Source: an uncultured archaeon
GTDB lineage: Archaea > Altiarchaeota > Altiarchaeia > IMC4 > QMZM01
Assembly (NCBI GenBank): GCA_965602195.1
Contig: CBFCYF010000002.1
Location: 1-62,295 of the forward strand
Direction of reading: 5' to 3'
DNA: 62,295 nucleotides
In this document: positions 3,622 to 59,660 of the stretch, one piece after another
How the letters are laid out: each line of letters begins with the position of its first letter
Numbering within the stretch: position 1 is the first letter of the stretch
Program-made: the position numbers and the translations under genes
The notes under the pieces: model-generated
The model's input: only the letters and a program-made list of their open reading frames with translations
What the model was told of the DNA's origin: nothing
Database searches by the model: none

Positions 3622-4269
3622 TTATTTCTTTCCTTCCAGTCTTTTATAAACCAGAAACAGGATGATGCAGAGGGCTATGATAAATAGAACCACGTATAGG
3701 GTGTAGTCGGTATTCTGGGGGGTGTATGTTCTTCCGCAATCTGTGTCTTCCTCAACCGCACAGTCGGGGTCGCATCTGCCGTCTTCTATTCCATCGCAGT
3801 AGTTGTCCTGCCCTCCAGAGGGACAGTCTAGGGGGCAGTTAATGTAGTTTTCCTTTCTATCTGACTCACATATGGTGTTGTTGTTACAAACCAGAATCGT
3901 TGTCGTATTAGTAGTCGGCCTCACACTAGTCGTACTCGTTGATATGGTTGTTGTGGGTGGACTTTTGACTTTAACGGAGACGCAGTCGGATTTTCCTCCT
4001 TCATCGCATAACACTTTCAGGTAGTATGTTCCTTCTTTTGGGGGTGACCATTTTACTTCGCTACTGGAGATGGTAAATCCGTAGAGGGGTGAGCCCTCAC
4101 ATCGTGTTTCGAATACATCCAGTGATCCGGCTCCGTGTGGGCAATCTGAGGTACACCTGCAGTTGCCTACGTAGCATTCGGGACATGATATTGTGATCCC
4201 GTGTGCTGTTCCCATCAACATCAGTAGTATTATCCCTCCTGTTATCTTGTTCATGGTTTCACCGGGCAT
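3622..4269 (-). CDS. Membrane-anchored Cys-rich surface protein
   Basis: Signal peptide; two Cys-rich modules separated by a Thr-rich linker (SPPTTTISTSTTSVRPTTNTTT); C-terminal TM plus KRLEGKK anchor. Confidence 0.6.
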   Translation of the reverse strand: MPGETMNKITGGIILLMLMGTAHGITISCPECYVGNCRCTSDCPHGAGSLDVFETRCEGSPLYGFTISSSEVKWSPPKEGTYYLKVLCDEGGKSDCVSVKVKSPPTTTISTSTTSVRPTTNTTTILVCNNNTICESDRKENYINCPLDCPSGGQDNYCDGIEDGRCDPDCAVEEDTDCGRTYTPQNTDYTLYVVLFIIALCIILFLVYKRLEGKK

Positions 4270-7200
4270 GTTATGTCTATTACTTCGGTTGATTTAGACC
4301 ACGCGATTGGGTCTTCTAGTTTCGGGTCGGATTCCAGATATGCTCTCCATGATACTTCATAGTCGCCGGGTTCTACGGTAGAACAATAAATGATTCCTGA
4401 GGCGGTCCCTGTTCCTTCTGGGGCTACTGATGTCGAGACGGTTACAATTTTCCCTGTTTTAGTGTTCTTGAACAGGAATAATATGATAATGTCTTCTCCG
4501 GCACTGTTTTCATAATCTAGGTTGCATCTATATCCGCCTTCTATTGGACTACTGACGAAACTGTTGAATGAGTATTTGCCTGGAGTAATTGTGGTTGTTG
4601 TTGTGTCGGAGATGGTTGTTGTGGTGGTATCTGGTGGTGTGGTTGTTGTTGTGTCTGAGGTGGTGGTTGTGGTGTCGGAGATGGTTGTTGTGGTGGTTGT
4701 GGGGCATTCTGGGCATGGGTCAAGTTCTTCCATCAGGTATCTTATGACGTGTCCGCAGTCTGCTCCGTATAGGGTTGTGAATATATGGGCTTCGTAGCAG
4801 GATCCTGTGTTGGGTGTGTTTGGGGTCATTTCCAGGTCTATCCATATCCAGAATTGTTCTCCGCAGTGGGGGCCTTCCCTGATTTCTATCAGGGCCTCCT
4901 GTGATTCTCCGCCGCCTTCTGCACAACCTGTTTGCGTGCATCCTAAGTCTATGATCTTTATGTTATATTTGCTGTCCGTCACCCATGTGGGGTTGCTGTG
5001 GCTGTGGCAATCTGCTGGGATGGTGGTTGTTGTTGTGGTGTCTGATGTGGTTGTTGTTGTGGTGTCGGAGATGGTTGTTGTGGTGTCGGAGATGGTTGTT
5101 GTGGTGGTTGTTGGCGGCGTTCCCGGACAATCCACTGGATCTGTTATGCATGAGCCAAGGGCACAATTTGTAATGGTGCTACACCCCCCATCCATACAAT
5201 AACTCTCAAGAACATCAAGAGGCCAGGGGAGTTCTCGGTCACACCATTCGCAGCTGTTATCCAGGCATTCGTGGCAGTTGTCAAGATCTCCGCATTCTGT
5301 AGGTATCACACAAGCTCCGTTTTTGCATCCGTAGCCGGTTGGGCACGTGATGTCGATGGTTTCTATATAGTATGTGTCGACGCAGTAGTGTTCCCTTAGT
5401 TTATCACCTATGCAGGCGTCTTTTCCTCCTGTTCTGATTCGTGCGTCTCTTTCATTGGCGGCGTGTTTTCTGAAACCATATGTGTGTGCTTGTGTATAAT
5501 AGTCTTTTCCATTATCCGGGTCTGAGCATGGTTGTTTGGTGGAGTCAAATACTCTGCAACTGTCGGTTTCTTGATCCCAGTAGCATGTTGTGATGTCAAG
5601 GCAATTATCCATTGTTTTTTTATCTAAGCATTCACTTGTGTTTATCGTTGTAGTGGTGGTTGTATCTCCCGTTGTAGTAGTGGTTGTATCTCCCGTTGTA
5701 GTAGTGGTTGTATCTCCCGTTGTAGTAGTGGTTGTATCTCCGCAGCATATGTCTCCGCAGCAGCCGCTGGTGCAGTCTTTCACGTATACCCAGTGATAAA
5801 TTGCTGTGGTTGTTGTGGTGTCTGATGTGGTTGTTGTTGTGGTGTCTGATATGGTTGTTGTTGTGTCGGAGATGGTTGTTGTTGTGTCTGATGTGGTTGT
5901 TGTTGTGTCTGATGTGGTTGTTGTGGATGAGCTTGTGGATGATGTGGTGGATGAGCTTGTGGATGATGTGGTGGATGAACTTGTGGATGATGTGGTGGAT
6001 GAACTTGTGGATGATGTGGTGGATGAGGTTGTGGTTGTGTCACAGTCTACAACCTTGAAGCTGTTTTCCTCTTCTGCTTCACACCCGTTTATTATTGCCT
6101 CTACGACAAACCTTCTGGTCCCAGGGATACCAAGATCGTCACTCCACTCATAGACGCCAGTAGTGACCCGTTCAAAGCCGTTCGTAACTAAAATACCATC
6201 TGGGTAGGGGTGGTATGGGTTGTAGAGTATTACCCGATACCAGGATGGGTCTGTCAACTTTCCATCATATCTAAATCTTAGGGTTGCAGTGAATGTATCA
6301 CCTTCACAGTATTCATCCTTATCGAATTTAATTTCTACGGAACAGTCTCCGCCACAGTATACAACCTCAACGCTGTTTTCCTCTTCTGCTTCACATCCCT
6401 CTATTGTTGCTTCTGCATCCACCTCCAGGGTTCCTGTTGCCACCATCGTGAATCTCGCTTCCTGTATACCTTCTGACTTTTTTGTAAAACGATCTGAGTA
6501 ATCGCCTCCATCTACCAGCACCCTCCTCCAGGATGGATCCGTCAAGTCTCCATCATGTTTGAATTTTAGAGTTATTACTACTTCGTCTCCCACACAGTAT
6601 TCTGCTTTGTCAAATTCAATGTCTATGGAACAGTCTGGGGGTGTGCCACACTCACCAATCCAAAAACTTGTGGATGCAGGACTTGTATACGCCATTTGGT
6701 CTGCACTATCATATACCTTCCCAGAGAAGTGGTATGTGCCCTCTGTGGGTGGTACGTACGTCCAAGTATTGGAGCATGTAGTACTAGTCCCAGTGCACTG
6801 ATGGCTGTGCCACAAACCCCCATATTCGGCCTCGAGTTTAGCCATATCTATGTCGTCATACCCATTTATAGTGATATACATTGGCTGCCCGACACAAGGT
6901 GTAGCTGGGGTGTAGCTGAGGGTGCCAGACGGAGGATTATCCTGTGATGCTACGCATACTCCGTCCTCGCATGTTTTTCCTGCGTTACAGTCAGAGTCAA
7001 TGCGGCATTCTACTACATTAACATATACGCATTGTGGGTCTGTCCAACTCTCCTGGGAGCTACTATCAAGTACATAGCCACAGTACTCATATGTGCCTGT
7101 GGTCGACTCTGAGAAATCCCAAAATTTTATGCATTCAGTCTGAGTTCCAGAGCAAGATTGATGGTGCCAGGTGTTACCATACCATGCACTGACTTTAGCT

Positions 7201-7775
7201 ACATCTATATCATCCCTCCCATTTACAGTGATTTCTATCTGCTCCCCAATAAGGGCGGGACCGCCAGATGGCCAGACAGCCAGGAAACCCCAGGGAGGAT
7301 TATCCTGTGATGCTACGCATACTCCGTTTTCGCATGTTTTTCCTGCGTTACAGTCAGAGTCAATGCGGCATTCTACTACATTAACATATACGCATTGTGG
7401 GTCTGTCCAACTCTCCTGGGAGCTACTATCAAGTACATAGCCACAGTACTCATATGTGCCTGTGGTCGACTCTGAGAAATCCCAAAATTTTATGCATTCA
7501 GTCTGAGTTCCAGAGCAAGATTGATGGTGCCAGGTGTTACCATACCATGCACTGACTTTAGCTACATCTATATCATCCCTCCCATTTACAGTGATTTCTA
7601 TCTGCTCCCCAATAAGGGCGGGACCGCCAGATGGCCAGACAGCCAGGAAACCCCAGGGAGGATTATCTCCTGCAACAGAGCCTGCCAGAATAACCGTAAT
7701 CAAAACCAAACATAGGAGTAAACTCTTCCATCTCATTTTACTTCCCTTCCCGTGGCTGATACTATATGACCTCAT
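4251..7775 (-). CDS. Giant secreted adhesin-like surface protein (1174 aa) with a tandemly duplicated domain and Thr/Ser-rich linkers
   Basis: N-terminal signal peptide (a more likely start is M14 at 7736). It carries two identical 121-aa domains (DNPPWGF...CVASQ) plus a divergent third copy, multiple Cys-rich modules, and DTTTTT(S/I), GDTTTTTT and STSSSTTSS linkers. Confidence 0.75.
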   Translation of the reverse strand: MRSYSISHGKGSKMRWKSLLLCLVLITVILAGSVAGDNPPWGFLAVWPSGGPALIGEQIEITVNGRDDIDVAKVSAWYGNTWHHQSCSGTQTECIKFWDFSESTTGTYEYCGYVLDSSSQESWTDPQCVYVNVVECRIDSDCNAGKTCENGVCVASQDNPPWGFLAVWPSGGPALIGEQIEITVNGRDDIDVAKVSAWYGNTWHHQSCSGTQTECIKFWDFSESTTGTYEYCGYVLDSSSQESWTDPQCVYVNVVECRIDSDCNAGKTCEDGVCVASQDNPPSGTLSYTPATPCVGQPMYITINGYDDIDMAKLEAEYGGLWHSHQCTGTSTTCSNTWTYVPPTEGTYHFSGKVYDSADQMAYTSPASTSFWIGECGTPPDCSIDIEFDKAEYCVGDEVVITLKFKHDGDLTDPSWRRVLVDGGDYSDRFTKKSEGIQEARFTMVATGTLEVDAEATIEGCEAEEENSVEVVYCGGDCSVEIKFDKDEYCEGDTFTATLRFRYDGKLTDPSWYRVILYNPYHPYPDGILVTNGFERVTTGVYEWSDDLGIPGTRRFVVEAIINGCEAEEENSFKVVDCDTTTTSSTTSSTSSSTTSSTSSSTTSSTSSSTTSSTSSSTTTTSDTTTTTSDTTTTISDTTTTISDTTTTTTSDTTTTTAIYHWVYVKDCTSGCCGDICCGDTTTTTTGDTTTTTTGDTTTTTTGDTTTTTTINTSECLDKKTMDNCLDITTCYWDQETDSCRVFDSTKQPCSDPDNGKDYYTQAHTYGFRKHAANERDARIRTGGKDACIGDKLREHYCVDTYYIETIDITCPTGYGCKNGACVIPTECGDLDNCHECLDNSCEWCDRELPWPLDVLESYCMDGGCSTITNCALGSCITDPVDCPGTPPTTTTTTISDTTTTISDTTTTTTSDTTTTTTIPADCHSHSNPTWVTDSKYNIKIIDLGCTQTGCAEGGGESQEALIEIREGPHCGEQFWIWIDLEMTPNTPNTGSCYEAHIFTTLYGADCGHVIRYLMEELDPCPECPTTTTTTISDTTTTTSDTTTTTPPDTTTTTISDTTTTTITPGKYSFNSFVSSPIEGGYRCNLDYENSAGEDIIILFLFKNTKTGKIVTVSTSVAPEGTGTASGIIYCSTVEPGDYEVSWRAYLESDPKLEDPIAWSKSTEVIDITCPVKP
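5647..5741. repeat. 24-bp coding tandem repeat x4 (GDTTTTTT)
   Basis: gttgtagtagtggttgtatctccc is repeated four times. Confidence 0.85.
5921..6030. repeat. 27-bp coding tandem repeat x4 (STSSSTTSS)
   Basis: The unit gatgatgtggtggatga(g/a)cttgtg is repeated; similar imperfect ggttgttgttgtggtgtcggagatg repeats occur at about 4596-4720, 5021-5115 and 5806-5900. Confidence 0.8.
6931..7656. repeat. Perfect 2 x 363-bp tandem duplication inside the giant gene
   Basis: Sequence 6931-7293 is repeated at 7294-7656 with no visible mismatches; it encodes the duplicated 121-aa domain. Confidence 0.9.
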
Positions 7776-7777
7776 TT

Positions 7778-8596
7778 TTATTCACACCTATATAACTTAG
7801 AATCGGCACAGCATGTGGCGCCGAAGGTCGGGCACTCACCTCCCTCAACGCATTGTGTTATCGTCGTAGTGGTTGCTGGAGTAGTTGAGGTAGTGGTTGT
7901 ATCCGTCGTCGTAGTGGTTGATGGAGTAGTTGAGGTAGTGGTTGTATCCGTCGTCGTAGTGGTTGCTGGAGCAGTTGTTGTCGTGACTACAGCTTCACAG
8001 TCCAGCAGGCATAACTCATAATAAACCTCGGCGGCCTCATAACATGCCTCTTTAAGTCCACTGCATACGCTGCTGGGATACCCTGCCCTAGTGCAGAGCT
8101 CGTATCTCCCATCACATGTTTCATGACGGTACTCTTTTGTGAGATCACATATCTCCGTGCATGAGGATGTCGCTTGGAGGATATTCACAATCGGCTCCCC
8201 GGAGTAGACTCCGGCATAAGAGCAGTCGGCTTCACCCATATCCTTATGTCCAAGATAGAATATAATGATGTCACTCACCTGCTCCCTGCTGAACCTGCTG
8301 GTGCCCACCGGTTTAGTAGTGTAGTCTCCCACCACCTCATGCACCATAGACCTGAAATCAGCATCTGAGGGGCAGGGAAACGGTTGGTCAGGAGGGCATA
8401 ACCCGACAAGCTCCTCGATTTCGCCGTCACTGAGGGAGGTGTATGTCTTCAGGTAATCCCTCATCTTGTCCTCCACCTCCCTATCAAAGCTCTGGTCAAA
8501 ATCAAAAGCCAAGGAGTTTGAGATCAGGAGCAATAGAGACAACAATATAGACATCAAAATAATTTTATTTCCTATGTTCTTCGTTATATTTAACAT
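7778..8596 (-). CDS. Secreted protein with a Thr-rich C-terminal linker and terminal Cys knot
   Basis: Signal peptide MLNITKNIGNKIILMSILLSLLLLISNSLA; a C-terminal 15-aa repeat TTTTTDTTTTSTTPS; it sits 2 nt upstream of the giant gene. Confidence 0.6.
   Translation of the reverse strand: MLNITKNIGNKIILMSILLSLLLLISNSLAFDFDQSFDREVEDKMRDYLKTYTSLSDGEIEELVGLCPPDQPFPCPSDADFRSMVHEVVGDYTTKPVGTSRFSREQVSDIIIFYLGHKDMGEADCSYAGVYSGEPIVNILQATSSCTEICDLTKEYRHETCDGRYELCTRAGYPSSVCSGLKEACYEAAEVYYELCLLDCEAVVTTTTAPATTTTTDTTTTSTTPSTTTTTDTTTTSTTPATTTTITQCVEGGECPTFGATCCADSKLYRCE
7861..7980. repeat. 45-bp coding tandem repeat of about 2.7 copies
   Basis: tcgtcgtagtggttg(c/a)tggagtagttgaggtagtggttgtatccg is repeated. 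Confidence 0.8.
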
Positions 8597-9017: not shown

Positions 9018-9587
9018 CTAGATGGTAGTTGTGATGCAACAGTCACCGTAGGTTATGCAGCAGCATTCTACATAATCTACTCCGCAGAAATTATCCAGGC
9101 CGGCGGGAAAGCCGGCAAAGCATGTCCCCCAACCATCATGATCTTTGCATTTAGTTTCTGAATCTGGGCATGATGCCGCAAATACTGCCTCACAGTATTG
9201 GAGTGGCGGCACCCATCCCCCCTCATCACATCCAAAGGGAAGTATGTCTGTATTATCAATTAAATAATTAATCACTGGCAGCGCAACCAAAACTATGATC
9301 ACCCCTATGAAGATATGTGAAATCCTGCCCCGTATATCATTCCTCTGCTCTATATCTTCAGTCGTCATATACTCTATGCCGTACACGATCAAAGCCAGGG
9401 TGGCTAAAAGGCCTATGATCAACCAGATAGTGTCCAGGAGAAAGCAGACTATGTCATTAATTCGGCGTATAATCATATCCACATCAGAGAGTGTTGTGGT
9501 TGGCGTCTGTGCCCAGACTGGGGAAATCAAGGCTGACACCATCAATAATATGAGTACACTCTTCCATAATCTAATCTGTAATCCCAT
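9018..9587 (-). CDS. Hairpin-motif membrane protein paralog 4 with a Cys-rich C-terminal ectodomain
   Basis: Signal peptide; hairpin LIVYGIEYMTTEDIEQRNDIRGRISHIFIGVIIVLVAL aligns with the hairpins of 1514-3003; C-terminus CCCITYGDCCITTTI. Confidence 0.6.
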   Translation of the reverse strand: MGLQIRLWKSVLILLMVSALISPVWAQTPTTTLSDVDMIIRRINDIVCFLLDTIWLIIGLLATLALIVYGIEYMTTEDIEQRNDIRGRISHIFIGVIIVLVALPVINYLIDNTDILPFGCDEGGWVPPLQYCEAVFAASCPDSETKCKDHDGWGTCFAGFPAGLDNFCGVDYVECCCITYGDCCITTTI

Positions 9588-12913: not shown

Positions 12914-12973
12914 ATTATTTAATTGTTACTTCACAAGTATTATATTAGTCTATCAGGGCCCGTGAGCTCAGCT

Positions 12974-13029
12974 CTCGGAGTTAGCCGAGGACTAAGGTGT
13001 GTTTCGCCCTTCAGGGGCTCAAGCACACT
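12974..13029 (+). repeat. Partial copy (5' half) of the ~123-bp structured repeat family
   Basis: ctcggagttagccgaggactaaggtgtgtttcgccc...ctcaagcacact matches the units at 29880-30127. Confidence 0.7.
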
Positions 13030-13107
13030 TATTTAACATAAAAATCACAACCTTAATCGTTCAGCAGACTCAACAAATAAAAAAAAAAATTCAGGGGCGT
13101 CCTCTCA

Positions 13108-13283
13108 GGGCCCGTGGCTCAGCATGGTTAGAGCGCTCGACTGATAATCCCGATGCAGTCATAAGACACCCTAAGGAACCCTCCTTTTTGTCTGTGAACT
13201 GTCCACAGGGAATACCTAGTGTTCCTTGTACCCTCCAGGGATTAGTAATCGAGAAGTCCGGAGTTCAAATCTCCGCGGGCCCA
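13108..13283 (+). tRNA. tRNA-Ile(GAT) with a ~101-nt intron at the canonical 37/38 position
   Basis: Exon 1 GGGCCCGTGGCTCAGCATGGTTAGAGCGCTCGACTGATA; exon 2 ATCGAGAAGTCCGGAGTTCAAATCTCCGCGGGCCCA. The 7-bp acceptor, D, anticodon (CTCGA/TCGAG, loop CTGATAA) and T arms all pair. The intron is about 13147-13247. Confidence 0.8.
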
Positions 13284-13347
13284 CCTTTCTTTTAGGAAAA
13301 GAAACGTGGACGAAAGAAAAAGGAATTCGCTTCGCGAATTCAATATT

Positions 13348-13686: not shown

Positions 13687-13776
13687 TTTTCATCCCTCAG
13701 ATAGAATAATTATTTACGATTAGTATCTAATATAACTCTCTGTGAGATATATGAATGCCCACATAGGGTGGCACAG

Positions 13777-13888
13777 CAACTGCCACAGCCAGTTGACATC
13801 TGGGTGCTACATTCGCTACGCTCAGCAGCACTCAACTGCCACAGCCAGTTGACATCTGGGTGCTACATTCGCTACGCTCAGTAGCACT
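13777..13888. repeat. 2 x 56-bp tandem direct repeat upstream of tRNA-Arg
   Basis: caactgccacagccagttgacatctgggtgctacattcgctacgctcag(c/t)agcact is repeated with 1 mismatch. Confidence 0.85.
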
Positions 13889-13917
13889 TAACAAACAAAA
13901 AAAACAACGTAACGCCC

Positions 13918-13991
13918 GCATAGGGTAGCATGGATATCCTGGGGGATTGCGGATCCCCTGACTCGGGTTCAAATCCCGGTGCGGGCAAACA
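13918..13991 (+). tRNA. tRNA-Arg(GCG)
   Basis: GCCCGCA acceptor pairs with TGCGGGC; anticodon arm GGGGA-TTGCGGA-TCCCC gives anticodon GCG; T arm TCGGG-TTCAAAT-CCCGG; discriminator A. Confidence 0.8.
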
Positions 13992-17969: not shown

Positions 17970-18548
17970 ATGAAAAGATTCAGACTTATTGTTGACGGGG
18001 ATGTAACTGGTGTTAGATATAGAGATTATGTGCAAAAAACAGCGTTAAAGCACAAACTTCACGGATCTGTTGAAAACATGAAGGACCGAACAGTGGAGAT
18101 AATCTGTGAGGGGGGAGACAAGAACATTCACAACTTCATCGAAGAACTAAAGGATGCTGAGGGGGAAGGGAGATGGCATATTGAAGGCTATCCTAATGCT
18201 GAGGTGAATAAAGTCCAGGCCATAGAAGAGAAGTCAACAGGTAAATTCACAACATTTGAAATAAAACATGGCAGCATGGAAGAGGAACTAGGTGACCAGA
18301 TGGGTGCGTCATACAATATTCTGCTCGATTACGCTTCATCTATAAGAAAAATAGATGAAAAATATGGCGTCATATCTGTAAACATGGAGGCGTCAGCCAA
18401 GGCAATAACATTACTCAGTGGGACATTAACAAAACTTAACACCACTCTTGAGGATGATAGGAAAGCTATGAAGTCTGACCGGGAGATGATGAAAAACCTA
18501 GCTGAGAAGATAGAGAAAAGCATAGCGGCCCTTTCTAGTAGAAAGTAA
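17970..18548 (+). CDS. Acylphosphatase-like domain protein with a coiled-coil C-terminus
   Basis: N-terminal RLIVDGDVTGVRYRDYVQKTALKHKLHGSVENMKDRTVEIICEG resembles the acylphosphatase fold motif (V.G.VQGV.FR...A..LGL.G.V.N..DG.VE). Confidence 0.5.
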   Translation: MKRFRLIVDGDVTGVRYRDYVQKTALKHKLHGSVENMKDRTVEIICEGGDKNIHNFIEELKDAEGEGRWHIEGYPNAEVNKVQAIEEKSTGKFTTFEIKHGSMEEELGDQMGASYNILLDYASSIRKIDEKYGVISVNMEASAKAITLLSGTLTKLNTTLEDDRKAMKSDREMMKNLAEKIEKSIAALSSRK

Positions 18549-18614: not shown

Positions 18615-19556
18615 TGTACTATCCCCCCACATATGTTACACTTTTGATTTTGAGTGTAAATAAGTATGAGGTGGGTTAGTATGAAGCTTTCAGTAAAACA
18701 GAGGTTTTGGATTGTTAAGCGGCGCTTGCAGGGGGTGAGTGTCGTTTTTATCTGCCGGCAGGCAGGGATTAGTAGGCGTACCTTTTATTATTACTGGCTT
18801 AGGTTCCAGCGTGAGGGGTGGAAGGGTCTTGGAATAAAGTCCCGCAGGCCTCATACGATCCATCGGACACCCCAGGAGACGGTTGATTTAGTAATTGAGT
18901 TGCGTGAAACCAAGGGGTGGGGCCCTTCAAGGATTGAAGGATACTTACATCAGAACAAACCGGAAGGGGTTAAGTTGGTTGGCCACAACACGATATATAG
19001 AATCATCAAGCAGGCAGGTCTTAACAACCCACTTGATAAGCCCCGGAAGACTTGGGGTAAAAAACGTTTCCAGAGAAGCAAACCAAACGAGATGTGGCAG
19101 GCAGACTGGAAGCTTACAAGAGAAGATGAATGGATGATTACCTATCTAGATGACTATAGTCGGTTCATACCCTCAAGCCAGGTGTTTGAAAATGCAAACA
19201 CAGAGAATGCACTAGCTGTGCTGGAGGAAGCAATGGATGAACACGGCACACCCAAGCAGATACTAACCGATCAGGGAGCTCAGTTCTACACCTGGCAGGA
19301 AGATGGAAAAACCAAATTCACAAAATACCTGGAACGCAAGGATATACAGCACATAGTAGCAAGCAAGAGAAGACCAACAACGATAGGTAAAGTGGAGCGC
19401 TTCCACAGATCTTATGAAGAAGAAGCTTGGCGATACTCTAACCATGGGATGTACATACAACATTACAACTACGAACGTCCACATCAGGCGTTAGATTATT
19501 TAACGCCTGCAGGCGTATATTTTAAAGAAGTGTAACATATCTCAGGGGATAGTACA
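18615..19556 (+). mobile_element. IS481-family insertion sequence (942 bp)
   Basis: 12-bp perfect terminal inverted repeats TGTACTATCCCC (18615-18626 and 19545-19556) starting with TGT; a single HTH+rve transposase ORF; flanked by a 16-bp direct duplication gtatccgctgaatcaa (18599-18614 and 19557-19572). Confidence 0.8.
18666..19535 (+). CDS. IS481-family transposase (HTH plus DDE integrase core)
   Basis: N-terminal HTH (GISRRTFYYYWLRF); DDE residues in WQADW, YLDDYSR and KVERFHRS. Confidence 0.8.
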   Translation: MRWVSMKLSVKQRFWIVKRRLQGVSVVFICRQAGISRRTFYYYWLRFQREGWKGLGIKSRRPHTIHRTPQETVDLVIELRETKGWGPSRIEGYLHQNKPEGVKLVGHNTIYRIIKQAGLNNPLDKPRKTWGKKRFQRSKPNEMWQADWKLTREDEWMITYLDDYSRFIPSSQVFENANTENALAVLEEAMDEHGTPKQILTDQGAQFYTWQEDGKTKFTKYLERKDIQHIVASKRRPTTIGKVERFHRSYEEEAWRYSNHGMYIQHYNYERPHQALDYLTPAGVYFKEV

Positions 19557-29736: not shown

Positions 29737-29845
29737 AACTGGCAACTCGGTCAGTGGGACCAATCGTAGCGCACGTTCCACCTTTCGCTAACGAAAAAAA
29801 TCTTCGATTTTTGAGTTCCTAAAATCGGCAAAGCTGATTTTCCAG

Positions 29846-30127
29846 AGCCTTTGAAAAAGGCTGCTCGGACTTAGCCGAGCTCGGAGTTAGCCGAGGACTA
29901 AGGTGTGTTTCGCTTTTGCTCAAGCACACTGAATGAGTTTAGTTCAGGGGGGTTGAACAAAGTGAATGCCCCCCCTTTCGCCAGCCTTTCTTAAAGGCTG
30001 TTCGGAGTTTGCCGAGGACAAAGGTGTGTTTCGCCCCTCCGGGGGCTCAAGCACACTGAATGAGTTTAGTTCAGGGGGGTTGAACGAAGTGAATGCCCCC
30101 CCTTTCGCCAGCCTTTCTTAAAGGCTG
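29846..30127 (+). repeat. Tandem array of about 2.3 copies of a ~123-bp structured repeat (possible ncRNA or MITE-like element)
   Basis: Unit A 29880-30000 and unit B 30001-30127 are about 93% identical. Each ends in the hairpin cagcctttcttaaaggctg and contains a G7/C7 stem. A T-tract follows at 30141-30150. Confidence 0.75.
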
Positions 30128-30765
30128 CTTTTGAGGTATATTTTTTTATAGTAGTTGTAGTTCAGTAAACTTGCCAGGAGTAGATAGAGAAGCCATCTCC
30201 AGGGAGGCATGAGGTTGAAGTAGGTCTGGATTTTCCCCAGAGGAGAGAAGTGTTCCCTGAACTCGTCGTCTGTCATCTTCCAGCCGTAGGTTTCTGTTTT
30301 GTTCTTTATGGTGTCGTTTCTCATCACGTAAACATGAGCTTCTTGTCTGATGATCTCCTCCCTGTAGCATCTGCCGTATTTCTCCTTGGTGTATCTATAA
30401 ACTGCTTTAGTCAGTATCGCCAGATCCTCGCAGTCGCCGGCTCCTTTATCTATTGTCTCATGGGGGTACGCCCAATACTCTACATTCCAGTAGATTTCAT
30501 GATCATGCATCTCCTGTATTCTTTCATGAACATAGCTTTCCGGTCTCTCACGGCTGTAGTTGTAGGCCTCTTCTGCAAACTCTATGAACCGGGGGTCGTC
30601 GACAACCACCATAGCCTCGATTCCATGAGACTGCCTGCATAGTTGCTCAAGGAATAACAGGGGGTTGGGGAATGATATCAGAAGGAACAAAAACAGGTTC
30701 ATGGAAACTATAACTGCAATCCTCAGGTACCATGTCCTACCTACAAGTCTCACCCACCCACTCAT
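30118..30765 (-). CDS. Membrane protein, possibly transglutaminase-like cysteine peptidase
   Basis: GAGDCEDLAILTKAVYRY...EAHVYV...ND gives a weak Cys-His-Asp core; N-terminal TM. The start was moved to the internal Met to avoid a 53-nt overlap with lig. Confidence 0.3.
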   Translation of the reverse strand: MSGWVRLVGRTWYLRIAVIVSMNLFLFLLISFPNPLLFLEQLCRQSHGIEAMVVVDDPRFIEFAEEAYNYSRERPESYVHERIQEMHDHEIYWNVEYWAYPHETIDKGAGDCEDLAILTKAVYRYTKEKYGRCYREEIIRQEAHVYVMRNDTIKNKTETYGWKMTDDEFREHFSPLGKIQTYFNLMPPWRWLLYLLLASLLNYNYYKKIYLKSSL

Positions 30766-30778
30766 CTTTTCAATACCT

Positions 30779-32470
30779 TTATGCTTTGAAGATATCCTCC
30801 ACTCTCGCGATCGTCTCCGCATCACCCACACCCTTGTCCTGCCTGATTCTCACCAGTCTAGGGAACCTTAGCGCATATCCTGAGGTGTATGTGGGGGATT
30901 TCTGGATTTCCTCATATGCGACCTCCACAACAATCCTTGGTTTCAGTGTTACCTCCGTGCCCTCCTGCCTCACAACATCATCTCCCAGAAGTTGAGTCAT
31001 ATCTTTCAGTTGCTCATCGGTAAATCCGGTGCCCATCCTTCCGATCGTGAGCAGTTCTCCGGTATCCGGGTCCAGTGTCGCAAGAAGAAATGAGCCCAGC
31101 CAGTGAGCCCGCCTACCCTCACCCCAGGTGGCTCCCACAATCACCAGATCCAGAGTCTCCATTACTGGCTTGATTTTATACATGTAGCCAACCCTTGAAC
31201 CAGGCTGATAGGGGGCATCAAGGTTCTTGGCTATAACCCCCTCATGCCCCTTCTCAATAGCGAGTGAATAGAATCCCTCAGCCTCCTTGGGATTATCTGT
31301 GAGTAGATGCTCAGCCAGTCTAAAATCAGGGCTTTCCTCTACTATGCTCTCCAGGATATTTCTTCTCTTTGCGAATTTCTCATCTATTATGTTATGTCCC
31401 CTGTAATAAACAATATCAAATAAATTGATTTCAACCGGAATCTTATCCACCATCTCCCTGATATGATATTTTCTCTTAATCCGCCTGGATAGATCCTGGA
31501 AAGGCCGGGGTCTCCTATTTCCTTTGGATTTTATGGCCACCAACTCACCTTCAACGATCACATCATCCTCCCTTAGATTCTCTTTGGCGGATTTTACTAT
31601 CTCAGGGAACTGCTTGGTTACGTTCTCCAGTCTCCGGGTGAACAGGAGGACCCCATCATCCGTCTTATGGATCTGGAGTCGTACACCATCATATTTAATC
31701 TCAAAGGCTGCGGGGGAGAACTTATCTAGGGCTTCCTTGATGCCGCCTACTTTCTTAGCCAGCATCACCTCTATAGGCCTTCCGCAGGTGATATCCACCT
31801 TCCCTAAACCCGTGTTTCCCTCTGATTTCGCAATCCTTGTCACCTCTCCAAGATCAGATGTAAGGGCATAAGCTCTATCCACCAGTTTCGAATCCGCCTT
31901 AAATGCCTGGGATATGGCATCTTTCACAATACCATCGCCCACCCCCAGCCTCAACTCCTGAAGTATCAACCTTACGATGTATCTGCTCTCCATGGGCTCG
32001 GCAAAGGATAGTAGTTCCTTGATGTAGCCTATTTTTTTCTCCTGACTCTTCATCCCTGTTAGTCCAGCTAGTTTATCCAGATTACTATAAACCTTGCCTA
32101 GGGTTAATTTCTCCACAAAAAGAGTGGTCTGGGTCTTCCTGATGAGAACTTCCTCCGCCACCAAACCAATATCCCCCTTAACCCTCAGCTTATCTTCCAC
32201 ATCCTGCTGGGAGATACCTGCGATATCGGCAATTGCTTTGATCATCAGTTTACTTCCTATCCCCAGCTCTTTTCCACTCCACCCGGGGAACACCTTCCCT
32301 CTCAGAAATAATAGAACAATGGGTAGGGAATCCTCCGGAACATCACCCAGGAATCTGGAGATTATGTCTGTCATCTCCAGTCTTCCTGCGACATTCTCCA
32401 GTTCCCTAAATACCTTGGCGAGAACAAAAAAATCCATCTTGGGGGGGGATACATCAAACAGATTCCACAC
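30779..32470 (-). CDS. lig: ATP-dependent DNA ligase
   Basis: KxDG adenylation motif EIKYDGVRLQIHK; OB-fold region; about 560 aa. Confidence 0.9.
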   Translation of the reverse strand: MWNLFDVSPPKMDFFVLAKVFRELENVAGRLEMTDIISRFLGDVPEDSLPIVLLFLRGKVFPGWSGKELGIGSKLMIKAIADIAGISQQDVEDKLRVKGDIGLVAEEVLIRKTQTTLFVEKLTLGKVYSNLDKLAGLTGMKSQEKKIGYIKELLSFAEPMESRYIVRLILQELRLGVGDGIVKDAISQAFKADSKLVDRAYALTSDLGEVTRIAKSEGNTGLGKVDITCGRPIEVMLAKKVGGIKEALDKFSPAAFEIKYDGVRLQIHKTDDGVLLFTRRLENVTKQFPEIVKSAKENLREDDVIVEGELVAIKSKGNRRPRPFQDLSRRIKRKYHIREMVDKIPVEINLFDIVYYRGHNIIDEKFAKRRNILESIVEESPDFRLAEHLLTDNPKEAEGFYSLAIEKGHEGVIAKNLDAPYQPGSRVGYMYKIKPVMETLDLVIVGATWGEGRRAHWLGSFLLATLDPDTGELLTIGRMGTGFTDEQLKDMTQLLGDDVVRQEGTEVTLKPRIVVEVAYEEIQKSPTYTSGYALRFPRLVRIRQDKGVGDAETIARVEDIFKA

Positions 32471-37310: not shown

Positions 37311-40300
37311 TCATTCATAAACTGTTATGTTAACTGGTTTACTCTTATCCGATATGTCTGGATTATAATATTCATACACCTTCGACTCGGGCGTCTTTGC
37401 TTTTATGGGGTAAAGTGCTTTTAGCCTGTAGGTGAATTCCAGAGGCTTATTTGAACTTATACCGCTCACATACAATATAAGTTGTCTGCCTGTGATCTCA
37501 TATCTATCTACTGCCTCCATGCTCTTAAGCTCTTCCAGGTCTCCTGCAACAACAGAGAATCCAGGTGGAATGCCTAAATCAATTATCACCAGATTAGCTG
37601 CTCCCACCCCGTTGTATGAGGCCTTGACTTTTACTTCAGCCATATCGTTGATCCTGATGTCTGTCGTATCGTATTCCACGTCGATCTTGATTATCTTATC
37701 TGTTGATTCTGTTTTCTCCCAGGGGACATAATATTTTCCAGCTATCTGATAAAATAGGAGTCCTTCACCTTCGTATTCTATCCTGACCTTATTTAATCCC
37801 TCCCGTGTATAGCTTTCCAGATCGATTAGCTGCAGTACCTCGTTGTTTGATTCATCTATGTTGATTCTTGATGCCTTTGCATCATTGATAAACACATCTA
37901 CTACCCCCTTACTACCTGCTTGTTGTAGATGCTCTGCCGCGTAAATTAAGGCCTTTAATGAGAGAACTGTTGCTTGAGTTGAACTATAAGTGCCGAAACT
38001 ATCCTTCTGCTTGATGAGGTAGTTCAACATTTTAACTGCTTTCCCGGGGTTTTTCCCAGCCTTCATATGTGCTAAGGCTGTGAGGGCGGTGATCTCAATG
38101 TCTCTGATACTGCCCTTCGACCCCATTATCGTTCTATCCGTGCTTTCTCCACCACTACTCCAGTGTATCGTATCATTATCCTCTATTTTTGTTTCATCTA
38201 ATTTACTTAGTATGGACTCTACTACCTTTCCGTCTCTGCCATACTCAACCAAGGCGTTTGCGCATAGTGCCAGAGTGTATTCGTCACTGGTTCCTGAGTT
38301 AATATTTTCTTTAATGTAGGATACTGCGTTATCTATCTTATTGCCCCTGTAGTCGCTATTAACCAGGCTCCATGTTATGAGACATGTTGCCGTTAATTTA
38401 GAGCGGGCCATATCCCGGGAGAAATCCACTAGATGACCTTTGGCCTCCCATGAACCGTCACTATTCTGCTGCTCTAGAATCCAGTTCTGTGTTCTTGGGA
38501 TCAGCTCCTCATCTATGTTATAGACCTCAGACATATCCTGAAATTCCATCAGACCGTATGCAGTTAAAATCAGTTTAGGTGGAGGGCTCCCAAACAGGGA
38601 GAACCCACCTGGGGTGTCTGTCTCAAAAGTGAGTAGTCTCTGGTAACCTGTCGCAACATATCCCTCAGCCTTCATCTGCAGTTCCGGGGTTATCTGTTCC
38701 GTCCTTTTCATGTAGTCCAATATCAATACATTCGGGTAGGTTATGGAGGTGGTCTGTTCAAAACACCCGTGAGGTACCCTGAATATATTATCAAGTCCAT
38801 CAACAACCTGGCTGAAGTATCCTGGATAAATCTTCACAAGAATCTTTGATGCATCATCTACGCTGTACTCTGGGATGTATACCTCCTCCTCTATAATACC
38901 CTCAAGCCGGCCATTTGTTGTTGCATAGGTTTCCTCCCCATCCGGAACAACCTCTATCTGCCGTGAAATAGCATCGCTTTTCTCTGTTCCATACGCGTAG
39001 ACCGTGAATTTATGCGGTCCATGCTTCAGTACTTTAATGTGATAGTATGTAACTGTGACCTCACTTGGGTTTAATCTGACTGTCTTCTCTTTCTCATCCA
39101 TTAACTCAAACCAGTATCCCTCCATTAGCTCCAAGCGTATATCCTGGGGCTTATCCAGGTAGTTGTATAGTGCTACTGGAACCCATACCTCATCTCCCTG
39201 GGTCAGGGTTCGGGGCAGATCAACATCAATAAAGAAATCCTGGAATACCAGAATCCCTTTATCTGTGCCGCCTAATCTACCGTCTAATGTGGAGGCTATG
39301 GCACTAAGCCTCCATGAGGTTATGGAGTCAGCCATCTTCAACTCTATGGTTGCTTTACCCTCCTCATCTGTTATCAATGACGGGTTGCTGTACAGGGTTT
39401 CAGGGAAAAACTGTCGGAGGTAAGGCGTGGCTCCCCCCACAGTATCTGCCTCCTCCGTGTCAGGGTACTGCTTGGAAGCCCCATCATATGTCTCTGACCA
39501 GAAGCCAGCGGAACCGCTGCCTGAGGTTCCCAGCTTGAATACCCCCAGCTGCCATATCACTATTGCCCCAAAGAAGACTATAGACAGGATGATGATGAGC
39601 AAAGCCACGGAAAAGAACACAGCCAAAAATTTCTTTCCTATGGCTTTCTCCTTCGTCTTTCCCTTAACGCCTCTCTTTCTGTTTCTAATCCACTTGCAGA
39701 TACCATATATGCCATATAATGGAGTAACTATGAGAACAAGCAGTAAAGCTATGCCTATCACCATAAAATACAGTTGGAGGATGCCAAAGATCATGGTTGA
39801 TGTCGTGTGATCAACATTTATCTGGAGGAATACAACCAGGATAATGAGTATAAACATCAGGAATATCCCCAGGATAAAACCCAGCATAGGGGCAAGAATC
39901 AATAATTGAATTATCCTGTTTTTACCTGATGCGATCTCAACCAGACCGTATATGAGGAGAACTGGATACGCTAGGAGAATTAATATCAGGATTATAATGC
40001 CCACAAGATACAGTTTCCCTGTGTAATCCTTCTTCTGGTCCTCTATCCTGTTTTTCTTTGATATGAATGTGTCTTCCATTATATCGAAGTCGGTTACCTC
40101 CTCAATGGATGCCATATAGGCTCTTGCAACGTCTTCCTCCTCCACCTCTATCTCCGGTCTGATTACTGGGGTTTCCCCTGGTTCTTCTTTCCTTGGCTTG
40201 ATTATCTCTGTGAGTTGAACGTTTTTTATCTGGAATCGCGGCTCAAGAATTTCTTTTTCGAAAAGAAAGTATATCTTCTCAAAGCCGGGCTGTATTTCCT

Positions 40301-59555: not shown

Positions 59556-59660
59556 CTTTGTAAAAGAAAGCGTTGGCGGAAAGAAAAGGAATCTGCTCAA
59601 CCCTTTCTTTGTAAAAGAAAGCGTTGGCGGAAAGAAAAGGAATCTGCTTCCAGCAGATTC
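59556..59660. repeat. 2 x 42-bp direct repeat (51-bp period) ending in a 9-bp-stem hairpin
   Basis: ctttgtaaaagaaagcgttggcggaaagaaaaggaatctgct occurs at 59556-59597 and 59607-59648, followed by the hairpin gaatctgct-tcc-agcagattc. Confidence 0.85.

Follow-up and report, generated by a model that had tools for sequence, protein, structure and literature searches.

We conclude, at a probability of roughly 0.6, that the repeats found in this stretch of archaeal DNA (the window, 62,295 nt in length, from an Altiarchaeota genome) are small, non-coding, non-autonomous mobile elements that match no described family. These double-hairpin elements (DHEs) have a core of 52–57 nt made up of hairpin A, a linker of 7–10 nt, and hairpin B, followed in some copies by an A/T-rich tail (0–75 nt). 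Insertion of a DHE duplicates local target sequence. The insertions that survive are concentrated at the ends of highly expressed structured-RNA genes, where the duplication reconstitutes the end of the gene and a decaying pseudo-copy remains on the hairpin-A side. As judged by sequence matches, the same element appears in metagenome-assembled genomes (MAGs) labelled as several archaeal phyla.

Composition of the repeats in the window

Tandem Repeats Finder reported a repeat at 29881–30127 with a period of 127 nt, 2.0 copies, 90% matches, and 4% indels. The initial annotation had described this region as two tandem units of about 123 bp, about 93% identical, with a distant partial copy; both the units and the partial copy are real, but the period is 127 nt, and the identity is unevenly spread, with 99% over the last 83 nt (29918–30000 vs. 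30045–30127) and 81–91% over the first ∼43 nt, where the hairpin loops of units 1 and 2 are wholly unlike. The partial copy beside tRNA-Ile (12975–13029) is 91% identical to the first 56 nt of unit 2 and shares 34 nt at 100% with unit 1, and an 18-nt probe taken from it gave 4 matches as compared to 0.01 expected. The hairpins that had been noticed were likewise found: the terminal 8-bp hairpin (CAGCCTTT-CTT-AAAGGCTG) at 29982–30000 and 30109–30127, the G7/C7 stem (as G6–7/C7) at 29945–29975 and 30072–30102, the long hairpin (GTGTGTTTCGC..GCTCAAGCACAC), and the supposed upstream relic at 29846–29862, which is a homologue of the terminal hairpin. A T-tract, said to follow each unit, follows the second (30128–30150) but not the first.

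The 127-nt stretch is not, however, the unit of the family, because only its first 52–57 nt (hairpin A, linker, and the hairpin B that we term H2) recur elsewhere, and the remaining 71 nt, previously taken for the second half of the unit, make up a double-hairpin element of another kind, oriented the opposite way. The unit is a composite of a plus-strand H2-class DHE set tail-to-tail with a minus-strand DHE of a second class, and the intergenic region 3′ of PAC2 is therefore an array of at least five alternating DHEs, in the order E2′(−), E1a(+), E2(−), E1b(+), E2(−) over 29754–30127. The features of the window are as follows.

12954–12972, plus strand: left copy of a target duplication, a pseudo-5′ end of tRNA-Ile (CAGGGCCCGTGAGCTCAGC vs. 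CAGGGCCCGTG-GCTCAGC at 13106–13123)
12974–13028, plus strand: DHE of the H2 class, with hairpin A CTCGGAGTTAGCCGAG (12974–12989), linker GACTAAG, and H2 (12997–13028)
13029–13105, plus strand: A/T-rich tail or spacer with an A11 run, between the DHE and the intact tRNA-Ile
13108–13283, plus strand: intact tRNA-Ile(GAT) with an intron of ∼100 nt (Rfam tRNA, 51.9 bits), the host gene with the duplicated 5′ end
13757–13776, plus strand: pseudo-5′ end of tRNA-Arg (GCCCACATAGGGTGGCACAG vs. GCCCGCATAGGGTAGCATGG at 13914–13933)
13777–13888, plus strand: two tandem 56-nt DHEs, with hairpin A CAACTGCCACAGCCAGTTG, linker ACATCTGG, and a variant hairpin B (GTGCTACATTCGC-TAC-GCTCAG(C/T)AGCAC)
13889–13913, plus strand: A-rich tail TAACAAACAAAAAAAACAACGTAAC (A at 17 of 25 bases) between these DHEs and tRNA-Arg (13914–13987)
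29754–29862, minus strand: older, disrupted DHE of the second class (E2′), reading on the minus strand hairpin A (29846–29862), ∼57 nt of extra hairpins, GCGAAAG, and hairpin B GTGGAAC..GTCCCAC (29754–29781)
29864–29929, plus strand: DHE E1a, H2 class, with an extra hairpin A (29864–29879), hairpin A (29880–29895), linker, and H2 (29903–29929, loop TTTT)
29930–30000, minus strand: DHE E2 copy 1, with hairpin A CAGCCTTTAAGAAAGGCTG, linker GCGAAA, hairpin B G7..C6 (29945–29975), and a 15-nt tail
30001–30056, plus strand: DHE E1b, H2 class, with hairpin A TTCGGAGTTTGCCGAG, linker GACAAAG, and H2 loop CCCTCCGGGG
30057–30127, minus strand: DHE E2 copy 2, 99% identical to copy 1
30128–30150, plus strand: T-rich tract CTTTTGAGGTATATTTTTTTATA after the array, overlapping the 3′ end of the convergent ORF

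E2 copy 2 may represent the right copy in a target duplication of 71 nt left by the insertion of E1b, or it may have arisen by tandem duplication; the stop codon of the convergent ORF (30118–30831) lies inside the loop of its hairpin A. Only hairpin A and the linker of the second class recur elsewhere, in Nanohalarchaeota, where they match the element CAGCCTTGTAAAAGGCTGGCGA. The tail at 13029–13105 may act as the tRNA-Ile promoter. Elsewhere in the window, a repeat at 59556–59660 breaks in a hairpin loop.

H2, the commonest hairpin B, has the form GTGTGTTTCGC-loop-GCTCAAGCACAC. Its 8-bp stem includes a fixed U-G wobble and is followed by a C/UC internal loop, 2–5 bp, and a free loop that varies from 2 to 14 nt. 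All 240 of 240 pair cells were paired, with compensatory changes at 2 pairs, an apparent invariance that is partly an artefact of searching with the exact pattern. Group II intron domain V, a k-turn, a bulge-helix-bulge (BHB) motif, a recombinase core site, and a split-tRNA leader were each considered for H2 and rejected by eye on the pairing scheme and the 2–14-nt loop. Hairpin A is perfectly paired, whereas its sequence is variable and exists in many versions, with a paired stem of 4–9 bp in all but one distinct copy examined; locus L019 is without hairpin A. The window holds five elements of the hairpin-B class, including the 56-nt tandem upstream of tRNA-Arg, as compared to 0.16 expected by chance, and all five either adjoin tRNA-Ile or tRNA-Arg or lie in the PAC2 3′ region.

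Compared with shuffled sequence, the folding of one unit gave z = −2.4 and that of the 306-nt array z = −4.6. This foldability was the sole support for the suggestion that the repeats are a small ncRNA family, a reading that we regard as improbable. There is no Rfam match, copies are present in both orientations to host genes, and the wider family has no consistent strand asymmetry. When the fold energies of the two strands were compared, no consistent asymmetry persisted once variant hairpins were added, as elements with a variant hairpin B gave the better fold on the opposite strand; fold energies therefore do not settle whether the element acts as RNA or DNA.

Occurrence elsewhere and target duplications

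The exact H2 pattern was found at 29 loci in at least 12 MAGs (2–4 or more copies per MAG), whereas simple arithmetic for its 23 fixed bases in 596 Gb predicts ∼0.2 chance matches. These MAGs carry six lineage labels (Woesearchaeota, Nanohalarchaeota, Micrarchaeota, Nanoarchaeia, Altiarchaeota, and Methanosarcinales), which are taken from record titles and may in some cases be wrong, the “Methanosarcinales” contigs being suspect at 22–35% G+C. The window's own subfamily yielded one extra locus in 241 million metagenome records, upstream of a tRNA and again with a short pseudo-5′ end. About one third of the copies elsewhere lie inside or at most 200 nt from a tRNA, RNase P RNA, or rRNA gene. 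Copies face either way relative to neighbouring genes, and DHEs are also nested in the loops of other DHEs, including H2 loops, with differing subfamilies. ORF maps of seven copies showed ordinary housekeeping neighbours. Spurious ORF segments of the “VLERKRNT” type in Nanohalarchaeota are translated DHE sequence.

Flanking direct repeats are enriched at these sites, with a score of at least 14 at 10 of 32 H2 sites vs. 11 of 596 random sites, and about two thirds of the H2 copies have no recognisable duplication. The duplications measure about 8–10, 15, 19, 20, 22, 23, 31, ∼70, and 96 nt (mostly ∼15–25 nt), and the duplicated sequence is always local and different at each site. Among the targets are five different tRNAs, genes for RNase P RNA, RNase J, and rRNA, and also non-genic sequence. 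Copies are concentrated at the termini of genes for tRNA, RNase P RNA, and RNase J. The 3′ ends of tRNAs are duplicated at L013 and L012 (20–23 nt), the last 19 nt of RNase P RNA at L022, and 96 nt of the RNase J 3′ end, stop codon included, at L014; 5′ ends are duplicated for tRNA-Ile and tRNA-Arg of the window and for tRNAs at L030, L010, and L004. In 9 of 9 such gene-end cases, the intact gene is on the H2/tail side and the pseudo-copy on the hairpin-A side. Away from gene ends, L007 has a 15-nt duplication and an uninterrupted copy of the same local sequence ∼80 nt off, a 92-nt insert with a DHE occupies the apical loop of a 23S rRNA helix at L020, and the copy at L010 lies in a canonical tRNA-Gln intron (position 37/38). 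Of the 9 well-defined cases, ∼5 have an A-rich tail; L007, L016, and L014 lack one. Because tandem duplications (16, 51, 56, and 127 nt) are frequent around the hairpins, some of the apparent target duplications could be slippage products.

In the close strain L038 (protein identity 96–98%), the tRNA-Ile pseudo-5′ copy is present with a tail or spacer 11 nt shorter than that at 13029–13105, the tRNA-Arg pseudo-copy has only 2 mismatches, and a copy downstream of tRNA-Arg lacks the 5′ arm of hairpin A. Hairpin-A copy number and tail length differ from those of the window, and the 16-nt hairpin-A doublets arose independently in the two. Empty tRNA-Ile sites, with no pseudo-copy upstream, were found in L041 and L043, which are relatives at ∼66% protein identity in which the gene order differs; between near-identical genomes, no clean presence/absence polymorphism was seen. 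For the 29.8-kb array, there is no orthologous empty site because the contigs of a strain with a 98%-identical PAC2 break in the repeat region, at E2′, 47 nt past PAC2. Relatives at ∼70% identity have another gene downstream of PAC2, and an exact PAC2 protein look-up returned no record.

Explanations for the insertion pattern

Searches for a dedicated enzyme were negative within their scope. The 40 proteins of the window include no reverse transcriptase, Y1/HUH transposase, tyrosine recombinase, or Cas1, although one unrelated rve-type transposase is encoded there. The window and the 8-kb flanks of copies yielded no reverse transcriptase; there was no integrase near copies or in the window, and no insertion sequence with DHE ends near any copy; an all-against-all BLASTP of 918 ORFs identified no protein family recurring near H2 copies in more than three genomes. 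Rfam returned only two tRNAs for the whole window at gathering score and, for 29740–30200 at E up to 10, only a chance snoR12 match (16.9 bits vs. a gathering score of 39). Neither exact H2 nor two variant patterns matched any of 2.9 million viral contigs in IMG/VR; a relaxed half-pattern gave 40 matches, approximately the chance number, mostly in one phage gene family and none with the 5′ arm. Literature searches with the hairpin sequence (both orientations, DNA and RNA) retrieved only chance primer matches, and the literature on archaeal MITEs, tRNA duplications, double-hairpin elements, and intron transposition provided analogies and no account of the DHE.

The pattern is best explained if an enzyme acting in trans inserts the DHE at the DNA level. 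Such an enzyme would recognise the hairpins and nick the target at a variable stagger, and fill-in would then leave a target duplication of variable length; hairpin loops are possibly preferred targets. The elements would have spread horizontally among co-occurring DPANN and Altiarchaeota lineages, and, once inserted, the A/T-rich tail and hairpins could be used as a portable promoter or terminator by the adjacent gene. To our knowledge, no described transposition chemistry combines hairpin termini, a lack of inverted repeats, and duplication of 8–96 nt of target, and an unrecognised enzyme or repair pathway may therefore be involved.

Variable-length target duplications are a hallmark of target-primed reverse transcription, and their occurrence at DHE copies raises the alternative of SINE-like retroposition, in which a transcribed element, often in a tRNA leader or 3′ UTR, gains an A-rich tail and is inserted by such a reaction. 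A variably placed second nick would account for the range of lengths, and the 3′ H2 would be the recognition hairpin of the reverse transcriptase, consistent with its conserved U-G wobble on the forward strand. A-rich or heteropolymeric tails do separate H2 from the right duplication at tRNA-Arg and tRNA-Ile (A11) of the window and at L013 (GATAAAAAA), L004 (CCTAAAAAAAAACAGG), and L022, and L019 and the L038 copy downstream of tRNA-Arg have a 5′-truncated look. However, L007, L016, L014, L012, L030, and L010 have either no tail or one that is not rich in A, the hairpin-A-only duplications do not resemble 5′ truncation products, the opposite strand gives the better fold for elements with a variant hairpin B, and neither the window nor the 8-kb flanks of the copies yielded a reverse transcriptase. 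We also know of no LINE-like partner in archaea. We consider this route unlikely.

The lack of an enzyme near copies would, on the other hand, be expected if no dedicated machinery existed and a nascent strand stalled at a hairpin copied another hairpin locus by microhomology-mediated template switching before returning upstream; RNA genes would then be hotspots because replication and transcription collide there. This would also accommodate the variable duplication lengths and tails and the frequent local tandem duplications (16-nt doublets and those of 51, 56, and 127 nt), as well as junctions in or near hairpin loops (H2 loops, tRNA D-/T-loop regions, the rRNA apical loop, and 59556–59660). 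Nevertheless, unrelated genomes share the same boundaries, the left one at the foot of hairpin A and the right one at that of H2, which random switch points would not give, and the nesting of different subfamilies in each other is not the outcome of local re-copying. Conservation of a 25-nt hairpin across phyla, with compensatory changes, a fixed wobble, and an internal loop, argues for a specific recognition factor or recent horizontal spread rather than a passive by-product. We judge template switching to be slightly less likely than retroposition.

More improbable than either is a host-functional structured module (a termination signal, an RNA-processing or stability hairpin, or a small ncRNA) whose flanking duplications are incidental. 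Bacterial REP/BIME arrays stabilise mRNA, and the arrays described here resemble them; the strong conservation of H2, with its wobble and internal loop fixed, the location of copies in tRNA leaders, at the 3′ ends of genes, and in the gaps where genes converge, and the A/T-rich tail always toward the intact gene, as would fit a TATA-like promoter or an oligo-T terminator, could likewise reflect selection for such a function. Yet copies also reside in a 23S rRNA gene, a tRNA intron, and each other, in either orientation to neighbours; they are flanked by duplicated target, two relatives have empty tRNA-Ile sites, and no Rfam family matches them. An effect in cis following insertion is moreover compatible with a mobile element and no substitute for mobility.

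Integration into tRNA genes is common in archaea. A 1.8-kb recombinase-encoding element of Caldiarchaeum shows the same layout, with a tRNA 5′ fragment upstream of the intact tRNA and the inserted DNA between them (PMC3293823). That the repeats are scars of plasmid or virus integration at tRNA att sites, each hairpin segment being a remnant after deletion, is nonetheless largely refuted and very improbable: the same 52–57-nt core occurs at many unrelated targets when an attP would match only one, no integrase is nearby, and H2 is missing from the 2.9 million viral contigs.

There is, in addition, a small chance that DHEs are a source of archaeal BHB introns. Following insertion into a tRNA or rRNA loop, the two target copies would form two identical bulges that pairing within the DHE would draw together around a short helix, and the splicing endonuclease would cut out the DHE and one target copy, restoring the RNA. 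The L020 23S insert agrees with this idea: in its predicted fold, AUA(C) and AUA bulges lie on either side of a 4-bp GCUC/GAGU helix; cuts at equivalent points of both would restore the consensus ...GAGCUCAUAUCGACGG, with GAGCUCAU|AUCGACGG as the expected spliced junction. If true, this would show concretely how archaeal RNA genes could gain introns and how introns could “transpose” among them.

If DHEs are mobile, they represent a class of archaeal repeat that is widespread, has not been described until now, moves between lineages as deeply divergent as DPANN and Altiarchaeota, and reshapes the ends of genes for tRNA, RNase P RNA, and rRNA, where metagenome assemblies break. They would also account for pseudo-fragments of tRNA ends beside intact tRNAs (at both tRNAs of the window and at several elsewhere). 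With a covariance model of H2, DHEs could be recognised during annotation, which would guard against misannotation as ncRNAs or as “VLERKRNT”-type ORFs.

Comparison with known systems

The initial annotation had proposed a MITE-like repeat family that targets tRNA-proximal sites; the family and its habit are upheld, but these are not classical MITEs. Like MITEs, DHEs are small (52–57 nt), non-coding, multi-copy (5 in the 62-kb window), mostly intergenic, flanked by duplicated target, and presumably mobilised in trans. They differ in having no terminal inverted repeats, their ends being two different self-complementary hairpins (the left end, a CAG..CTG or CTCGG..CCGAG hairpin A, is not the reverse complement of the right end, ..GCTCAAGCACAC), in duplications that vary from 8 to 96 nt rather than being fixed at 2–10 bp, and in having no related insertion sequence that we could find. 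In a generic census, Ca. Altiarchaeum and a Woesearchaeon were the archaea of highest MITE density (PMC11602168).

DHEs share variable duplications, a non-autonomous nature, a conserved 3′ hairpin, and, in some copies, an A-rich 3′ tail with SINEs, but their tails are inconsistent, they have neither an internal promoter nor a tRNA-derived head, and the search for a partner reverse transcriptase was negative. We know of no SINE-type retroposons in archaea.

Among autonomous elements, the IS1634/IS1549 group of the IS4 family generates long, variable target repeats of tens to hundreds of bp, but its members are DDE elements of 1.5–2 kb with terminal inverted repeats. Casposons have a fixed 14–15-bp duplication, terminal inverted repeats, and Cas1 with a polymerase. 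With these and other tRNA-integrating elements DHEs share insertion at the ends of tRNA and housekeeping genes and the rebuilding of the gene end, and 14–15 bp is near the modal length of their duplications; these are variable, however, without inverted repeats, and Cas1 was not seen in the window. Elements with integrases duplicate one specific att site, whereas the 55-nt DHEs enter many targets.

A likeness to BHB introns is present or plausible only at L010, in its tRNA-Gln intron, and at L020, where the predicted pairing of the ends of the 23S insert is a 4-bp helix with an AUA bulge at each side. In the window, all copies are outside genes and have no BHB motif, and DHEs are defined by their hairpins rather than by a splice-site structure.

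Bacterial REP/BIME/REPIN sequences are mobilised by RAYT transposases, have a conserved GTAG-type head, and show no target duplications. DHEs resemble them as extragenic imperfect palindromes in alternating arrays at gene 3′ ends or between convergent genes (29754–30127), possibly acting on termination or mRNA stability, but they duplicate their target, are found also in tRNA leaders, introns, and rRNA, and are accompanied by no Y1_Tnp among the 40 proteins of the window.

The double-hairpin elements and GC clusters of fungal mitochondria and the hairpin repeats of sponge mitochondria, of ∼30–80 nt, are inferred to be mobile by a mechanism that is unknown. They are organellar and unrelated in sequence, and long variable duplications and tRNA-end targeting are not part of their description, so that the relationship is one of analogy only; like DHEs, they consist of two adjacent hairpins and are scattered in intergenic regions, introns, and variable regions of rRNA.

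Double-hairpin units and the PAC2 3' array

The recurring entity in the window is a double hairpin of 52-57 nt and not a 127-nt unit. The initial annotation had read the locus as two tandem units of about 123 bp with a partial third copy; Tandem Repeats Finder did return 2.0 copies at 29881-30127 (90% matches, 4% indels), though with a period of 127 nt, and the third copy stands, 12975-13029 aligning with the first 56 nt of the unit (short probes from these 56 nt gave 3-4 matches vs 0.01-0.3 expected). The hairpins named there are present and the 306-nt array folds more stably than shuffled sequence (z = -4.6), but the T-tract described after each unit follows only the second, and the identity, put there at ~93%, is 99% over the last 83 nt and 81-91% over the first ~43 nt, with unrelated hairpin loops in the two units (TTTT vs CCCTCCGGGG).

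In an alignment of three window copies, one copy from a close strain, and a single metagenome match, all five share hairpin A (CTCGGAGTTAGCCGAG), the linker GACTAAG, and H2 (GTGTGTTTCGC-loop-GCTCAAGCACAC), the commonest second hairpin (hairpin B); outside this block all sequence differs, the tandem units alone excepted. Nearly all H2 copies have a hairpin A of variable sequence 7-10 nt upstream, its stem paired over 4-9 bp (mostly Watson-Crick, with a few G-T pairs) and often of the form CA-stem-loop-stem-TG. The unit's remaining 71 nt (module 2, or E2) form on the minus strand a double hairpin of a second class, CAGCCTTTAAGAAAGGCTG followed by GCGAAA and a G7/C6 hairpin, and its hairpin A and linker match those of Nanohalarchaeota H2 elements, CAGCCTTGTAAAAGGCTGGCGA. 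Scanning the window for the hairpin-B core (TTCGC-loop-GCTCA, closing stem of at least 5 bp) yielded five copies, all on the plus strand, vs 0.16 in shuffled sequence. Two further stretches of the window belong here:

29754-29862, minus strand: older, interrupted second-class element (E2'), just upstream of the tandem units
13777-13888, plus strand: 56-nt tandem repeat holding two of the five core copies (hairpin A CAACTGCCACAGCCAGTTG, linker ACATCTGG, variant hairpin B), directly upstream of tRNA-Arg

The first of these includes the upstream hairpin once suspected of being a relic. Because both halves of the unit and this segment are double hairpins, the PAC2 3' region is an array of alternating orientation: E2'(-), E1a(+), E2(-), E1b(+), E2(-), where E1a and E1b are the H2-class members. 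Between the two tandem units the H2 parts are far more diverged than the E2 parts, as would be expected if E1b inserted separately and duplicated 71 nt of target; alternatively, the 127-nt tandem may have arisen by tandem duplication and subsequent loop replacement. The stop codon of a convergent transglutaminase-like ORF (30118-30831, no Pfam match) lies in the loop of the array's terminal hairpin (30118-30127), so an element may have replaced the original 3' end of that gene. In a strain with 98%-identical PAC2, contigs terminate inside the array, a further sign of insertion. The earlier MITE-like, tRNA-proximal reading was partly right; its unit needs redefining as the 52-57-nt double hairpin, and the small-ncRNA reading is without support.

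Distribution of H2 and neighboring repeats

The window is assigned to Altiarchaeota by its PAC2 and Pop5 homologues. Exact H2 with a loop of 2-14 nt was found at 29 loci in a 596-Gb set holding one genome per species, with ~0.2 chance matches estimated, and H2 was absent from 2.9 million viral contigs. Labeled by the record titles of their MAGs, which often carry several loci each, the hosts are Woesearchaeota, Nanohalarchaeota, Micrarchaeota, Nanoarchaeia, Altiarchaeota/Altiarchaeales, and Methanosarcinales, the last of which (contigs of 22-35% G+C) may be mis-binned. Compensatory changes appear in variants picked up by chance at these loci (GTGCG../..CGCAC; GC to AU in the upper helix), and a U-G wobble and a C/UC internal loop are constant in all of them, an invariance of H2 that partly reflects how copies were found, because the search pattern was exact.

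Other repeats and genes were noticed alongside. A C-rich motif, (C/G)AGCCCCCRCCYWCCC, recurs 0-60 nt downstream of Nanohalarchaeota H2 (L006, L009, L011, L015, L024, L025, L028), often within a CTCGAG..CTTGAGG-type hairpin loop and followed by a T-run; module 2 has a similar GCCCCCCCTTTCGCC, and composite repeats may include this motif as one more module. A second double-hairpin family (TTTCTTT-loop-AAAGAAA, then ..GAAAGAAAAAG, then GAATYYGC-loop-GCRRATTC) lies directly 3' of tRNA-Ile and after a T2SSF-like gene, and is kept in other Altiarchaeota contigs:

13286-13341: window copy
40250-40268: window copy
59556-59660: window copy, a 42-nt stretch repeated exactly 51 nt apart, the first copy stopping in the loop of its second hairpin
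L042 and L043: copies downstream of tRNA-Ile

The tRNA-Ile(GAT) gene itself (13108-13283), missed by ARAGORN and detected by Rfam, has an intron of ~100 nt; among relatives, L041 has none and L043 a different long intron in the same place. Elsewhere, a highly repetitive coding region (4251-8596, minus strand; repeats at 4565-6035, 6931-7667, and 7861-7995) contains repeats of 21/24/45 nt as well as a 363-nt unit that is repeated twice with 99% identity. Its ORFs (1174 and 272 aa), neither with a Pfam match, are flanked by two T4SS_pilin-like ORFs (1514-2155 and 9018-9587) and possibly encode surface or appendage proteins. In this archaeal genome, 37311-42602 (minus strand) encodes a 1763-aa alpha-2-macroglobulin-like protein with MG2, A2M bait-region, TED, and receptor-binding domains.

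Target duplications at gene ends and within genes

Several observations point to insertion. Flanking direct repeats scoring at least 14 were found at 10 of 32 H2 sites; of 596 positions drawn at random from these sequences, 11 reached that score. At L007 the element lies between two copies of AAGATGTTCAAATCA, and an uninterrupted copy of the same local sequence is found ~80 nt away. In Altiarchaeales (L014), the final 96 nt of an RNase J gene, with its stop codon, flank an element on either side, and the reading frame is intact; at L022 a 125-nt insert ending in H2 lies between two copies of the final 19 nt of RNase P RNA; and 20-23 nt of tRNA 3' ends, from the T-loop region onward, are duplicated at L012 and L013. 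Five tRNA genes share one 5'-end layout of pseudo-copy (about -3 to +8..+22), element, tail, and intact tRNA:

Window: tRNA-Ile and tRNA-Arg
L030: tRNA-Ser-like
L010: tRNA-Gln
L004: tRNA-Met

In all gene-end cases (9 of 9) the intact gene is at the H2/tail side and the diverged pseudo-copy at the hairpin-A side. In the relatives L041 and L043 (~66% Pop5 identity) the tRNA-Ile site is empty, its upstream region short and ordinary, with neither pseudo-5' end nor element. The closer strain L038 (96-98% protein identity) carries the same elements, with hairpin A doubled and the tail 11 nt shorter at tRNA-Ile, a less diverged tRNA-Arg pseudo-copy, and, downstream of tRNA-Arg, different sequence that includes another variant element. 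Nanohalarchaeota elements of one subfamily are nested in the H2 hairpin loops of another. In Woesearchaeota RIFCSPHIGHO2_02_FULL_36_9 (L016, L018, L023, L001), H2 elements occupy differing positions in a ~100-nt repeat with terminal inverted repeats (GATCATTGCC...GCAATGATC), which looks like a conventional MITE serving as target.

Elements also lie inside genes. In a Micrarchaeota LSU gene (L020), the apical loop of one domain V helix holds a reversed element, a 92-nt insert at a point to which the archaeal model gives 2 nt. In the predicted fold both insert ends meet in a 4-bp helix (GCUC/GAGU) between AUA(C) and AUA bulges, both from the duplicated target (AGAGCUCAUA and AGAGUAUA); cuts at equivalent bulge points would give back the consensus sequence. 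Elsewhere in this operon, a different LSU hairpin loop (about 6100-6151) contains a second, unrelated insert of 51 nt, and the SSU gene (901-2711) is ~330 nt longer than its model. By eye and fold, an H2 element lies within the canonical 37/38 intron of the L010 tRNA-Gln; no target duplication is visible around it, so it may have entered an intron already there. ORFs traverse reverse-oriented elements at L006 (5404-6141), L008 (3248-4147), and L009 (5702-6265), which then appear in translation as ..CVLERKRNT..DQPFRRL..; the gene starts were probably called too far upstream there, a likely origin of annotation errors.

Insertion mechanism and comparison with known systems

The elements end at the feet of two unlike hairpins, without inverted repeats; target duplications run from 8 to 96 nt with a mode near 20, the tail is optional, variable, and often A-rich, and junctions are frequently in or near hairpin loops. 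Copies are strongly overrepresented at the termini of highly expressed genes for structured RNAs, and H2 is conserved across phyla. A mechanism must account for all of these features. Much of the clustering ~20 nt from gene ends can be attributed to selection, since an essential RNA gene tolerates an insertion only when the duplicated stretch extends to the end of the gene. Selection of this sort may also lie behind the orientation rule: upstream of a gene, an A-rich tail can provide a TATA-like promoter, and downstream its complement can provide an oligo-T terminator.

We favor, at a probability of about 0.6, DNA-level insertion by a putative trans-acting enzyme that would recognize the element's hairpins and nick the target at variable stagger. 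SINE-like retroposition, which would account for the variable duplications and the A-rich character of some tails, is unlikely: tails are inconsistent, and no reverse transcriptase was found among window proteins or in the flanks of copies. Slightly less likely still is template switching provoked by hairpins without dedicated machinery, to which the many local tandem duplications point but against which the exact element ends and the conservation of H2 argue. A purely host-functional RNA or terminator module is improbable, and integrase scars are the most improbable of all. Fold-energy asymmetry between strands does not separate RNA from DNA. Window proteins included no Y1 transposase or tyrosine recombinase, and comparison of the ORFs flanking H2 copies found no recurring protein family. 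A single mobile-element gene was found in the window (18666-19535, plus strand). It encodes an rve-type DDE transposase, apparently IS481-like or IS3-like, that carries HTH_32/HTH_29 domains and shows no visible link to the elements; perfect hairpins lie near it at 18335-18359 and 19485-19509.

A generic MITE census ranked Ca. Altiarchaeum and a Woesearchaeon highest in MITE density among archaea (PMC11602168), so the repeat richness of these lineages was already known. We found neither the element nor its conserved hairpin, cross-phylum spread, or gene-end duplication signature described in the literature. The elements behave like MITEs and, in arrays, like REP/BIMEs, yet fail the defining tests of both: unlike MITEs they have neither inverted repeats nor a fixed short duplication, and unlike REP/BIMEs they make target duplications and have no RAYT gene among window proteins. 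Fungal mitochondrial double-hairpin elements and GC clusters look closest, by analogy alone. For long, variable target repeats the IS1634/IS1549 group offers a precedent, as do casposons and integrase elements for duplications that restore gene ends, but these are large and autonomous, with other hallmarks. We consider the kind, small non-autonomous structured repeats, to be already known, but there is a real chance that insertion proceeds by a new chemistry.
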